The notes beneath the pieces were generated by a model. It searched no databases, was not told the origin of the DNA, and worked only from the letters and a program-made list of their open reading frames with translations. This document shows, piece by piece, positions 8,111-42,264 of a stretch of DNA of 64,000 nt. Source of the DNA: Eledone cirrhosa (Eukaryota); NCBI GenBank assembly GCA_964016885.1, contig OZ024749.1, positions 2,418,001-2,482,000 of the forward strand. The letters are read 5' to 3'. Both the position numbers and the translations under genes were made by a program. Position 1 is the first letter of the stretch, and the number at the start of each line of letters is the position of its first letter.

Positions 8111-8118
<8 letters not shown>

Positions 8119-8330
8119 TAAAATAAGAGATTAAAATTTAAGCAAAGAATCGCTGCCTTCACCCTTAGCGGGATCTTAAGGGTGAAAGCAGCGATTCTTT
8201 GCTTTAATTTTAATCTCTTATTTTAATAAATATTTCCCCTACGGTTCGCATATATTTGATATATATTTATCCTTATCGAGTCCTCTTTGGATTTTAGTCT
8301 TCAAATTTATTGTTCTGTTACTGTTACCTG
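8111..8330. mobile_element. Foldback short element, family F; also at 33362-33970 and 42030-42210
   Basis: Near-perfect palindrome 8111-8233 (gcaaagaatcgctgc...gcagcgattctttgc) next to (TA)n; shared tail atttgatatatatttatcctta. Confidence 0.8.
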
Positions 8331-9636: not shown

Positions 9637-9792
9637 CGTATAGCCACATTTGAGTAGGTGTGTGTGTGCGTGGGGGAGTAAGTGTGCGTATATATATGCG
9701 TGTGGGTTAGGGTTAGGGTTAGGGGTAGGATGTGGGTGTGTAAGTGGGTGCAGGTGCATGTATATGCGGGCCTCTATATGTGTGTACATGTA
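9637..9792 (+). repeat. GT-rich dispersed repeat with internal (GGGTTA)3; near-identical copy at 32620-32777
   Basis: Direct sequence match over ~155 bp. Confidence 0.9.
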
Positions 9793-9871
9793 TTTGTGCA
9801 TAAAAGTATGTGCTTATGTGCATCTCATAAGAATGTGCGCGAATGATTATATATGGACTATATATGCTTTT

Positions 9872-17383: not shown

Positions 17384-17857
17384 GGGCGGTTAAAATTACC
17401 GAGATCCATGGACGAGTTCTCTCCACCGGTCTCTGTCCCTCATTATCGCTGCCATGTCCTGCGTCTCCAACAGACCAGTGTCTGTCCTTAGGGCATCAAC
17501 ATACGTTAACCTTGGTCTTCCACTTCTAGTGTGTCCATGTAGGGGCTCCCACAGGAGCACTGAGTGCAATGTCAACTCTGGATGTCGGTGAGCATGTCCA
17601 GCTAACCTCAGTCTCCTCTGTGTCACTTTTGAGCTGACTTTTGCGAGGTTTCCATACAGCTCTGAGTTTTTCGTCCTGAGAGTATACTGATTAATGTTCA
17701 GAGCCATCCTCAGCATTCTCGTGTAGCACCCATCCACCATCTGAGTGAGTTTCTTGGCCAGTGTCCAAGTCTCAGACCCGTACAGCAGCACAGACTCCAC
17801 TACAGCAATGAAGAGGCGGATTTTCATGTCTCTACGAAGGTCCGACTCCCACTCCGA

Positions 17858-17860
<3 letters not shown>
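17384..17860 (-). mobile_element. RTE-clade LINE, 5'-truncated 3' end (ORF C-terminus)
   Basis: KIRLFIAVVESVLLYGSETW..DGCYTRMLR..RRLRLAGH..GRPRLTYVD..DRDRWR; uninterrupted; flanked by (TA)n. Confidence 0.93.
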
Positions 17861-17903
<43 letters not shown>

Positions 17904-19004
17904 ATGTGTGTGCAGGGGTAGATTTATCTATACATCTGTGTATGTAAACATGTGAATATCTATCCATGTGTATATCTATACATGTGTGTTTATATATGTG
18001 TGTATATATACATGTATGTATGTATACATATATATATCTATACATGTGTGTATATATACGTGTGTATGTATACATGAGCATGTATACATGTGTGTGTATA
18101 CATGTGTGTATGTATACATGTATATCTATACATGTGTGCATGTATATATGTGTGTATGTATACATGTGTGTGTGTATACATGTGTGTATGTATATATGTG
18201 TGTATGTATACATGTGTGTATGTATATATGTGTGTATGTATATATGTGTGTATATATGTGTATATCTATACATGTGTCTATGTATATATGTGTGTATGTA
18301 TACATGTGTGTATGTATATATGTGTGTATGTATATATGCGTTTATACATGTGTTTATCTATATATGTGTGTATGTATATATGTGTGTATGTATATATGTG
18401 TGTATACATGTGTATATCTATATATGTGTGTATGTATATATGTGTGTATGTATATATGAGTGTATGTATATATTTATATATAAAGGCAACTCATACGAAT
18501 ATCCTGAAATAATTCTTTGTTCTTTTGTATATATTTAATATTTCTTATAAAATGCTATATATTGACTACAAATGATACATTCATACTCTCACATACACGT
18601 ACATATACATACATATATACACTGTCACATACACATATACATACATACATACATACATTAATGGAACAGTAAAAATATGTAAAACATTCCATAAAATTCT
18701 GCATCTAATAACTGCATATACACATGTACAGATACAAAGCATATACACATGCACACATACAACTCAAAACATACACATCCACACATACAATAACATCCAT
18801 ATCTACACATGCATGCAGACATACATATCTACCTAGTTGATGTTGTGTAAATTCCAATGAGAGAGTCTTGTATCTATGTTAGAAACCGACTCTCTCTCTA
18901 TTGGTAAAACTTTGTGAAATTATAAAACCAGAAGAACATACATATACACATACAAACGTACATACACTCTCACATATATATATAAATACATAAATGATGG
19001 CTGC

Positions 19005-31489: not shown

Positions 31490-32776
31490 TATATAGATAT
31501 AAATATCTATCTATATAAATGTGTGTGCGTGTGTGTGTGTTTGTAGGCCCATAGGACTCTTTTGAGTGTATATAAATATGTGTTGTTATATATGCAGGCC
31601 ACACACACACACACACATAAATATATACATATATGCGGATGTGAGTATGTTTGTGTCTGTTATAGTATTTAATGATTATATGCCTAAGTAGTTAATAATC
31701 ACAGTTTATTATATATAAGTCTTTTCAAACCCAGCAATAGTTATTGGCTAAAACGGGAGTGATAAACTAAAACACAACAGAAACAAATAAACACTCAAAT
31801 AAATAAATCATATACGTTCCTTTTTTTCCCTCTATATCTTCGCAGCTAATCTAAGTTGCCATAATAACAGCACATGGTATAAAATAATATATAAAGATAT
31901 AAAATAATATATAAAGGAAATAAATATAAAAACAAAATTCTCAAAAAATTATTCAGAACCATTTTGCAAAGGGCTACACAAATAAAACAACCAAAAATCC
32001 AAACTCCCAAAACAGAGAACATAATGTAATTGCTGTTGGTCGTTTCATCATTTATTTATTGGCTGTCATCACCAGCTACTGGAAACGTTCACACGAACTT
32101 TTTTTTCTCTCGCTTGAGGTCAGGCAGACTGAAGTACATTTTGTAAGAAGCGATTAGATAATCATTCCGCCATTTTCATCACATACGCTGTTGTAACAAA
32201 ACTAGTAAAACAACAAATATTTAAATTGGAAAGAAAAGCTTGAGCGATCTCGTTAAAAGCTGGGAGTGGGTAGAATTAGAAATATTTTCGGCGAAAGGTT
32301 ATTCGGTATTTAATTCCATCATTAAACTAGCAATATGGGTTCTAATTCAGCCAAATACATTCTTATTGTTTTATGATATTCTTTTCTTGTTATCTTCCTG
32401 TTATATATATAAAAAAAAAATATGTCCAATTTTAAATATGGAAACAGGGGAGGTTACTAGGGGAATATTCGTATGTATTAAAAAAAAGGGCATCGAGTTA
32501 CCTGCGTGAATGTATAGGTTCGTTCTATGTGCTATCTGTTGAACCAGAGTATTGGTATAATTTTACCGACATATTAAACTGATGTTGGTAACATTTAATC
32601 GGATCTTTTGCATCTTCAACGTATAGCCACATTTGAGTAGGTGTGTGTGTGCGTGGGTGAGTAAGTGTGCGTATATATATATGTGTGTGGGTTAGGGTTA
32701 GGGTTAGGGATAGGATGTGGGTGTGTAAGTGGGTGCAGGTGCATGTATATGCGGGCCTCTATATGTGTGTACATGT

Positions 32777-33297
32777 AATTGAAAATTAGAATTGGTGCTC
32801 TGAAATAGCTATATATATATATATGAATGCATATATAGTGTATTTTGCAATACACTGTATGCTTAATTAAAAGCATTTCGAAGACCTTATGTTATTGTTT
32901 TAGAGTAGTGACAGACTCACTTACTTTAATTTCAGCAAACAGGAGAAGATAGAGCTGACAATACACTATATATACATTCATATATATATAGCTATTTCAG
33001 AGCACCAATTCTAATTTTCAATTTCTGCTTGACCGGCAACCGCTCAGTATAATCAGTTTCTGATTATTTACTATAATTCTATAAGAACCAAACATCCATG
33101 ATTTCAGCAAACAGGAGGAGTAGTTGGCTTTGATAAGCATCAATAAATGCGAAACAAGGTCTTGTCAGCTTTATCTCCTCCTGTTTGCTGAAAGTAAAGT
33201 AAGTGAGTCTGTCACTACTCTAAAACAATAGCATAAGGTCTTCGAAATGCTTTTAATTAAGCATACAGTGTATTGCAAAATACACTATATATACATT

Positions 33298-33300
<3 letters not shown>
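32777..33300 (+). mobile_element. Retrozyme-like ~319-nt monomer (32961-33299) preceded by an inverted partial copy, family G
   Basis: atacactatatatacattc at 32961 and 33280; 32777-32960 is the reverse complement and spans the monomer junction. Confidence 0.8.
33102..33193 (+). ncRNA. Type I hammerhead ribozyme with U3-A8 core and long stem I, family G
   Basis: TTTCAGCAAACAGGAGGAG..GGCT-TTGATAA-GCAT.caataa.ATGC-GAAA-CAAG.gt.CTTG-TC|AGCT..CTCCTCCTGTTTGCTGAAA; predicted cleavage after 33166. Confidence 0.85.
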
Positions 33301-33361
<61 letters not shown>

Positions 33362-33369
<8 letters not shown>

Positions 33370-33963
33370 TAACAGATTAAAGCAAAGAATCGCTGCTTTC
33401 ACCCTTAACGGGATCTTCTGAAACTAAAAAAATCAATCCGTGAACGCAGTCTACGTGCTTGTATATGCATACCCATGGCGGGTGTTTTCGCGTATGCATC
33501 TTTAAGAACGTATATGGATGCGTGCATGTATATATTTAATTATTGTTGATTTCAATAACCTCTGTAATTTATTTACATTATTCTTAACTCTGCAGTTTAG
33601 TCTAAGACTTCATTTCTACCATAAACGTGGTTTTGTCTTTGCGTGTAATTGTTCTGATCGCTACACATAATAACGTATTATTTTCGCGTTTTTTTCGTTC
33701 ATTGCCAGAGAACGTCTCCACGAACCAAAGTATCGTCTTCCTGTCTTCCTTCGGTTGCAACGTTTTTCGAAATATTTACTTCTGCGTTCACAGATCGATT
33801 ATTTTAATTTCAGAAGATCCCGTTAAGAGTGAAAGCAGCGATTCTTTGCTTAAACTTTAATCTGTTATGTTAATAAATATTTGCTCTACGGTTCTTATAT
33901 ATTTGATATATATTTATCCTTACCGAGCCCTCTTTGGATTTTAGTCTTCACATTTATTATTAT

Positions 33964-33970
<7 letters not shown>
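33362..33970. mobile_element. Family F element with ~85-bp inverted arm, between (TA)n tracts
   Basis: 33362-33449 is inverted at 33782-33875; CAGAAGA-TCCC..GAAA hammerhead-like variant. Confidence 0.75.
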
Positions 33971-34007
<37 letters not shown>

Positions 34008-34010
<3 letters not shown>

Positions 34011-34440
34011 GATTGATGCTTTGAAATAGCAATGTATACATGAATGTATGTATAGTATATTTGGCAATATACCGAATGCTTAATTAAAAAACATTTTGAA
34101 GACCATACTCTATCAGTTTTAAAGTAGTGTCTGTGTCACTTACTTCTTTTCTTCAGCGAAAGAAGGGAGAGAAGCTAACAAACTCTCTGTTTCACGCTGT
34201 TCGCGGACATCAGAGCAACGTACTCCCCGCTTTCGCTGAATATTATAGAAGCTGGATTCTTATAGAATTCCAGTAATAATCAGAAGCTGATTATACAGAG
34301 CGGTTGCCGGTCCAGCAAAAATTAGTTATTAGGGTTGGGGCTCTGAAATAGCGATGTATACATGAATGTATGTATAGTATATTTGGCAATATACCGTATG
34401 CTTAATTAAAAACATTAATACCGTACGCTTAATTAAAAAC
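34008..34440 (-). mobile_element. Retrozyme-like family G copy, ~322-nt unit plus partial tandem repeat
   Basis: gaaatagc..cttaattaaaaa repeated at 34023 and 34345; homologous to 32961-33299. Confidence 0.8.
34152..34240 (-). ncRNA. Hammerhead, family G, with C3-G8 core and A9 substituted
   Basis: TTCAGCGAAAG..GCT-CTGATGT-CCGC.gaaca.GCGT-GAAA-CAGA.gag.TTTG-TT|AGC..CTTTCGCTGAA. Confidence 0.7.
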
Positions 34441-34831
34441 AAACCCTATTAAGAGAAACTTCACTATAGGGGGTTCACCCCAACACTTGAATCTGTTGAT
34501 GGAACCCTTTCTGCCTTTGTCACCCTAATTTTAGCCTTAAAGAATTAGCTTCTAAAGAATTTCCCTTTTCTTTAAACCATTGAATCCCACCCATCCTGTA
34601 GACACCTGTCTTACAGGCATTGTTACTTTAAGTGATAAACAAGGATTGGTATTCCAATTTTGAACTTGTTTACAGTATTCTTTCTGCCTTTGTTAATTTT
34701 ATAGCTTTAAAGAATTAGCTTTTAATGAATTCGCCTTTCTTTAAATCCTTCAACCAATGACCTCCACCCATCCCAATCCCCACCCTCTCCTACCACCATA
34801 TAAGGAAAGACATAAATACTAACATTTACTT

Positions 34832-41988: not shown

Positions 41989-42201
41989 TTGTGATGGAGG
42001 GTTTGTGGTTTTTCTCGCATATATATTAATTAAAGAATCGCTGCTTTCACGAAGATCTCGTTAATAATGAAAGCAGCGATTCTTTGCTTAAACTTTAATC
42101 TGTTATTTTAATAAATATTTCCTCTAGGGTTCTTATATATTTGATATATATTTATCCTTATGGAGCCCTCCTTGGATTTTAGTCTTCACTTATATTTTTA
42201 T

Positions 42202-42264
<63 letters not shown>

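Follow-up and report, generated by a model that had tools for sequence, protein, structure and literature searches.

Introduction

Metazoan non-LTR retrozymes are low-GC repeats of 150-450 bp that have no ORF, LTR, PBS or PPT, carry a canonical type I hammerhead and occur in thousands of copies (Cervera and de la Pena 2020, PMC7229834). Vertebrate retrozymes have been argued to be non-autonomous derivatives of Penelope-like elements (PLEs; Li, Clavereau, Pollet, bioRxiv 10.64898/2026.07.22.740005). PLE insertions, for their part, are described as showing 5' truncation, partial tandems, an inverted 5' copy and a tail of 30-40 bp that is often present at just one end, with (TA)n tracts as targets (PMC8557442). 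In work with a purified PLE protein from the anole, both strands were nicked and extended, starting from two internal sites on the RNA that flank the tail; the anole hammerhead needed protein, and ribozyme mutants did not affect insertion in vitro (PMC11167929). Natural hammerheads with U and A at positions 3 and 8 (U3-A8) have also been reported and are active in vitro (Perreault et al. 2011, PMC3088659), and they are described in the Cercyon PLEs of Schistosoma as well (PMC4209133).

Here we describe a ~320-nt hammerhead repeat of Eledone cirrhosa, starting from two copies in a 64-kb window (the whole stretch of DNA that was analyzed, 64,000 nt; OZ024749.1:2418001-2482000). This ORF-less repeat is very probably a non-LTR retrozyme whose RNA is copied into (TA)n by a PLE RT/GIY-YIG protein acting in trans. 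Like the retrozymes of PMC7229834, it is a short ORF-less unit with a type I hammerhead, low GC, thousands of copies and forms that range from monomers to multimers, and its size resembles that given for the mussel (350-390 bp) and axolotl (330/350 bp) elements. The family agrees with metazoan non-LTR retrozymes, as that source describes them, in every feature open to a test. Unlike the retrozymes described there, its dominant subfamily has a U3-A8 core and a palindromic helix III of 5-6 bp; cleavage and circular RNA, which have been demonstrated for those elements, are putative in the Eledone repeat. Two fixed 3' end sites and inverted arms are further features of the Eledone repeat that are not in the PMC7229834 descriptions compared.

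With EN+ PLEs (Craig et al. 2021, PMC8557442; Frangieh et al. 2024, PMC11167929), the repeat shares truncation, tandems, an inverted 5' copy, a 30-40 bp tail, (TA)n or AT-rich targets and a hammerhead near the 3' end. It differs from the elements described in these two papers in having no ORF and in carrying a canonical hammerhead with a long stem I instead of the minimal PLE form. Its dispersed monomers, locally amplified arrays and proposed relationship to PLEs are likewise features of the vertebrate retrozymes of Li et al.; there the evidence presented is co-occurrence and pLTR homology, mainly in Xenopus, whereas for Eledone it is insertion anatomy without pLTR homology. Among the matches listed for published work on cephalopod or octopus retrozymes, hammerheads and Penelope, we found no description of the ~320-nt family, and supplements may hold mollusc examples.

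Two copies of a ~320-nt unit in the window

Two diverged homologous copies had been predicted in this region, each slightly longer than one unit, and both points held. Copies A and B are 76-77% identical over 345-431 alignment columns, their units measure 319 and 322 nt, and each consists of a unit plus a partial repeat. The main arm of copy A (32961-33298, plus strand) comprises one 319-nt unit (32961-33279) and 19 further nucleotides, and runs with a short-type 3' end into its target, the (TA)n tract at 33300-33364. We number the unit from window position 32961 (u1), which places the predicted cut between u206 (C17, 33166) and u207. The count of two copies was right but incomplete, as it did not include the inverted second arm of copy A. 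This 5'-truncated arm (32777-32961, minus strand) is joined to copy A head to head and is 94% complementary to it; it covers unit positions ~202-319 and then 1-63, contains only the 3' half of the hammerhead and has a tail-type 3' end.

Copy B, which belongs to subfamily B (34005-34416, minus strand), is made up of 34 nt (unit positions 289-322), one 322-nt unit (34062-34383) and 57 nt (positions 1-57), and its tail-type 3' end enters the (TA)n tract at 33967-34007. An extra short repeat of unit positions ~291-314 at its 5' end (34418-34441, minus strand) is likely a template slip. Directly upstream of both fixed 3' ends, the unit has a 7-bp hairpin (33268-33285, plus strand). In the subfamily-B version (34055-34072, minus strand), pairing is kept by a compensatory change (two commonest forms in 87 A arms and 19 B arms). 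The 3' region with this hairpin looks like the best conserved part of the unit across subfamilies, and the hairpin at 33268-33285 is a likely candidate for a recognition element or binding site of the PLE protein.

Several other elements were noted. An 82-nt repeat at 32700-32781 adjoins the inverted arm, contains (TTAGGG)3 and is 97.6% identical to 9715-9796. Between copies A and B, we found a different two-armed (TA)n insertion (33357-33961), with related pieces at 8111-8314 and 42026-42207. Read by eye, it has a type I hammerhead-like fold with the core CAGAAGA (A at position 4) in most of 24 listed copies and CUGAAGA in one (L060); a family-wide U4A core would be unusual. Elsewhere in the genome (L178, L195, L204, L216, L219), we saw a further C3-G8 family of type I hammerheads, which is older and whose flanks bear no relation to our unit. 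In a frame at 17399-17923 (minus strand), the first residues after an AT run presumably resemble the C-terminal part of a LINE-type reverse transcriptase. No ORF is joined to any mapped copy of the ~320-nt family, and none of the long frames of the window encodes RT plus GIY-YIG.

Each copy carries a predicted type I hammerhead

A hammerhead had been proposed for each copy, and we recovered both, each of type I, with cores at 33130-33136 in A and 34213-34208 in B and with the stem I strands that had been cited. Hammerhead A (33103-33192, plus strand) has a long stem I with an internal loop, the U3-A8 core UUGAUAA, stem II at 33137-33150, GAAA, a near-palindromic helix III at 33154-33165 and a GUC triplet ending at 33166, after which the cut is predicted. 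In hammerhead B (34152-34240, minus strand), the C3 (34213) and G8 (34208) of the proposed CUGAUG core are present, but the next base is U, the triplet ending at 34177 is GUU, not GUC, and the copy is degenerate. Its core reads CUGAUGU, with a private U at position 9 (34207; A9U) and a C at 10.1, and the base pair of stem II is mismatched. Copy B in the window is probably a dead member of an intact CUGAUGA subfamily.

The ~96-nt motifs fold far better than their shuffles (z = -7.2 for A and -5.0 for B; 0 of 200 shuffles in each case). For motif A, the lowest-energy structure is not the hammerhead-competent fold but another one, lower by 5.6 kcal/mol, so we infer the active fold from conservation and not from energy. 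An Rfam scan of the whole 64-kb window at gathering scores gave 0 matches. The topology is type I and the units are in tandem, unlike plant LTR retrozymes, which are defined by a type III hammerhead in two LTRs and a 4-bp TSD.

The repeat is a high-copy family with several subfamilies

DNA searches of the Eledone cirrhosa assembly (3.0 Gb) gave 1,957 and 2,720 candidates at first look. A descriptor of the A-type core matched the genome 2,996 times, compared to 13 times for a reversed-pattern control, so the A-type motif is not a product of chance, and the retrozyme-type family that had been proposed is indeed present in high copy. The descriptor for one B form had 146 matches, versus 0 for its control. 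Among hammerhead rows from the 60 best-scoring loci, UUGAUAA was found in 52 of 55 A rows and GUC in 54 of 55; U3-A8 is fixed in this subfamily. The B rows contained CUGAUGA (32/39), GUU (28/39), U.U at 10.1-11.1 (32/39) and A at position 9 (38/39), the window copy being the sole row with U. Sampling in genome order revealed further subfamilies, whose stem II is GCAU/AUGC, GUAC/GUAC, GCAC/GUGC or GCUU/AAGC, and helix III varies between subfamilies yet stays palindromic. A single contig from organism B looks similar to the GCUU/AAGC subfamily, but at depth 4 its coverage is too low for it to be counted.

The U3-A8 core of subfamily A is the same core covariation as in PMC3088659 and PMC4209133, fixed here in a canonical retrozyme subfamily whose motif has about 3,000 matches; it is also present in PLE hammerheads of the Eledone cirrhosa genome. 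In subfamily B, the U.U at the base of stem II matches the axolotl HHR_Amex2 described in PMC7229834. Together with the mostly GUU triplet, it is a weak point for an active ribozyme. For comparison, 1 of 9 tested retrozyme dimers cleaved according to the Xenopus preprint (bioRxiv 10.64898/2026.07.22.740005).

Tandems with at least two hammerheads include a 28-unit array (C14:23499037-23508239), L212 and L228 (about 17 and about 14 units) and L224, and 38 of 208 arms cross the cut site at least twice. The 28-unit array starts with an inverted arm and ends with a tail in (TA)n, and among its units we distinguish 13 types, with a higher-order block of 9 units that is repeated. Because of these higher-order repeats, we conclude that it grew at the DNA level after insertion; a rolling-circle origin of this array is ruled out by the 13 unit types and the repeated block. 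Two pairs of near-identical family loci, L025/L026 and L117/L118, each lie far apart on one contig and are probably segmental duplicates.

Copies end at two fixed 3' sites and vary at their 5' ends

To map insertion ends, we called arms in L001-L060 (minus array L029), L113-L142 and L157-L236, leaving out array, PLE and pattern-picked (L143-L156) loci. Two fixed 3' sites ~30-35 nt apart account for 208 of 262 distinct arms: 113 stop at the short site (u7-33, whose true end near u20-22 is made imprecise by an AT run within the unit) and 95 at the tail site (u50-64, mostly u55-58), where (TA)3 follows in 79 cases. The remaining 54 arms are fragmented or end elsewhere. The 5' ends, in contrast to these 3' ends, are scattered from u1 to u293 (84 arms, genome-ordered loci). 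The original prediction had taken the different starting registers of the two window copies as circular permutation, expected of copies of a circular or tandem RNA. This did not survive the mapping: the termini are fixed on the 3' side, only the 5' ends vary, and the registers come from variable 5' truncation.

The cut site is crossed by 177 of 208 clean arms, and 117 of the 208 exceed one unit in this sample, which is biased to long copies. On this basis, most templates were uncut multimers or circles. Such over-unit copies fit a circular template and an uncut tandem transcript equally well, and divergence between rounds within arms does not separate the two. That over-unit copies crossing the cut site are common would also be expected if the copies were randomly permuted cDNAs of a ~320-nt circular RNA, and circular RNAs have been shown for coral, mussel and axolotl retrozymes (PMC7229834). 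However, uncut multimers explain the over-unit copies just as readily, and with the 3' ends of 208 of 262 arms at two fixed sites, there is no random permutation; we consider this reading highly improbable.

Many insertions consist of two arms joined head to head (n = 98), and both ends could be classified in 60 of them. In 57 of these 60, one arm has a short end and the other a tail end; two are short-short and one is tail-tail (p = 3e-14). In 40 of 48 cases, the distance between the two arms of an insertion is smaller than that to the median other arm, and rare variants are shared between arms in 10 insertions. This suggests that both arms of an insertion come from one RNA source, with gene conversion as an alternative. 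A fold-back model, with the second arm copied from the cDNA of the first, was rejected, as neither arm of insertion A is contained in the other, and no more than 33 of 55 pairs have the tail arm as the longer one. Taken together, the insertions show all of the PLE-type signatures: 5' truncation, partial tandems, an inverted 5' arm, a 30-40 bp tail and a (TA)n target.

Selection likely acts on the hammerhead fold

In an alignment of 32 chosen rows, 93.3% of 941 cells are paired, and 9 of 30 pairs have changed on both sides. The covariation score of these rows is higher than in any of 500 shuffles and in any slid control. As a plain count, however, the 9 doubly changed pairs do not exceed the shuffles, 126 of 500 of which reach that number, and the double changes mostly track the single A/B split. 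Within 91 A-group units, we found seven recurrent double Watson-Crick changes, distributed over stems I, II and III. Pairing is kept by recurrent variants at 15:8, compared to 9:49 for singletons (p = 2.5e-5, from rows that are not independent and with one B row left out), and by 65% at true pairs, compared to 34-54% in slid controls. The core is intact in 88-91 of the 91 units per column; recurrent variants number 0 of 9 in core columns and 24 of 160 outside, a difference that is not significant alone.

The claim that the stems differ in sequence while pairing is kept is borne out, as compensatory changes recur across several subfamilies. The covariation predicted between U3-A8 and C3-G8 fared less well: the swap is there, but it is one event between two subfamilies, is already published, and involves a degenerate C3-G8 copy. 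Positions 3 and 8 are U-A or C-G in 165 of 169 motifs, in a sample partly picked by a pattern that allows only a pyrimidine at 3 and a purine at 8. Overall, selection on the hammerhead fold is likely, although the covariation stems from a handful of events and follows a few subfamily splits, not many independent changes.

Compensatory changes in hairpins can also arise through template switching. This would be the source of the pairing if the repeat were a satellite- or MITE-like sequence spreading at the DNA level, with the hammerhead as an inherited fossil. Arrays do exist, the higher-order structure of the C14 array is typical of DNA-level expansion, and inverted arms mimic terminal inverted repeats. 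However, the fixed 3' and variable 5' ends of dispersed copies point to reverse transcription, the swap at positions 3 and 8 lies outside any DNA hairpin, and the near-complete conservation of the core argues against a fossil. Of the explanations weighed here, we give this one the least credence.

Symmetric junctions at the predicted cut site

We searched for arms whose first base is exactly u207 and obtained 14 matches at 11 loci, of which 2 are internal deletions and 9 are true 5' ends. In seven of these nine (four cleanly), the partner arm begins there as well, around a 4-nt palindrome, against 614 read-through copies of the u207 anchor. A control 6-nt palindrome (u280) gave 3 symmetric and 8 asymmetric ends and 1 insertion per 2,286 read-through copies, and at a 12-nt palindrome immediately 5' of the cut, none of 15 rows had a symmetric junction. 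Symmetric junctions were more frequent at u207 than at the control by a strict count (4 versus 3, p = 0.04) and by a lenient one (7 versus 4, p = 0.003, computed with a control value of 4 that has since been lowered to 3), while the rates of asymmetric ends were equal. No general pile-up of 5' ends was observed at the cut site, with 0 of 84 genome-ordered arms starting at u205-209.

This small excess of symmetric junctions, which is post hoc, set against two controls and limited to about 1% of arms, hints at a trace of cleavage. Alternatively, it may be explained by pausing at the ribozyme hairpin. It is possible, though we put it forward only tentatively, that the insertions record the PLE mechanism in vivo, a dimer priming one strand per RNA start site on RNA from one source, with ~1% of arms derived from ribozyme-cut RNA.

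A PLE family as candidate partner

The genome is PLE-rich, with 10,596 GIY-YIG candidates. One of the loci examined, L093 (C1:145868501-145876500, minus strand), contains a full-length PLE with 750-nt pLTRs that are 99% identical, a 938-aa open RT plus GIY-YIG frame with a Cx4Cx2C linker, a minimal U3-A8 hammerhead and two 3' ends about 65 nt apart. The linker is Neptune/Nematis-like, going by the description in PMC8557442. Both L093 and subfamily A end in TTCTAAT followed by (AT)n; this shared terminal heptamer and the U3-A8 core are the only links between the unit and the L093 family. Because 50 endonuclease loci (the 30 best GIY-YIG and 20 long-ORF loci of the 10,596 candidates) yielded no pLTR with homology to the unit, the L093 family would be a candidate partner only. 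Two other leads were discarded: apparent colinear unit matches in L073 had crossed into a separate element, and L064 holds a B copy that inserted independently. Minimal hammerheads of their own, U3-A8 in some cases and C3-G8 in others, lie ~130-230 nt ahead of the (TA)n end in at least three other PLE families (L063-L112).

As every insertion signature is PLE-type, the copies could also be 5'-truncated ends (pLTRs) of an unseen autonomous PLE, and Xenopus retrozymes are related to pLTRs (bioRxiv 10.64898/2026.07.22.740005). However, what lies 5' of a unit in the mapped loci is more unit, an inverted arm or flank, and never a shared ORF end, with the proviso that top-hit sampling may miss rare ORF-linked copies. 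Moreover, the pLTR hammerheads of PLEs in the Eledone cirrhosa genome have short helices and unrelated flanks. We regard an origin as pLTR fragments as very unlikely.

Proposed mechanism and implications

We propose a model for retrozyme mobilization by a PLE protein in which over-unit copies or arrays would be transcribed to multimers, some of which the hammerhead would cut to monomers, probably aided by dimer formation via the palindromic helix III. Monomers may then be circularized; on whether a ~320-nt circle serves as template within this model, we are about evenly divided. The PLE protein, probably as a dimer, would bind the conserved 3' region and nick both (TA)n strands, and reverse transcription would start at two internal RNA sites, one per strand. 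How far copying runs, along an uncut multimer or around a circle, would vary, and the two cDNAs would then join head to head. Amplification at the DNA level would later turn some insertions into arrays. Selection would keep the ribozyme because it helps the element propagate, not because it has a function for the host.

In its ribozyme chemistry, the repeat offers nothing new. What the repeat adds to the known class of animal retrozymes is an undescribed, multi-subfamily family, and with it an invertebrate retrozyme tied to PLE mobilization by insertion anatomy, a link that, by the account of the preprint of Li et al., still awaited study beyond vertebrates. With the near-strict one-tail rule, what had been a qualitative remark in print becomes a sharper, testable prediction of how the two PLE start sites are used. 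If the tentative reading of the junctions is true, they would be genomic evidence of germ-line cleavage by a U3-A8 retrozyme, and the 320-nt unit would offer a minimal substrate on which the formation of PLE tails and inverted ends could be studied.
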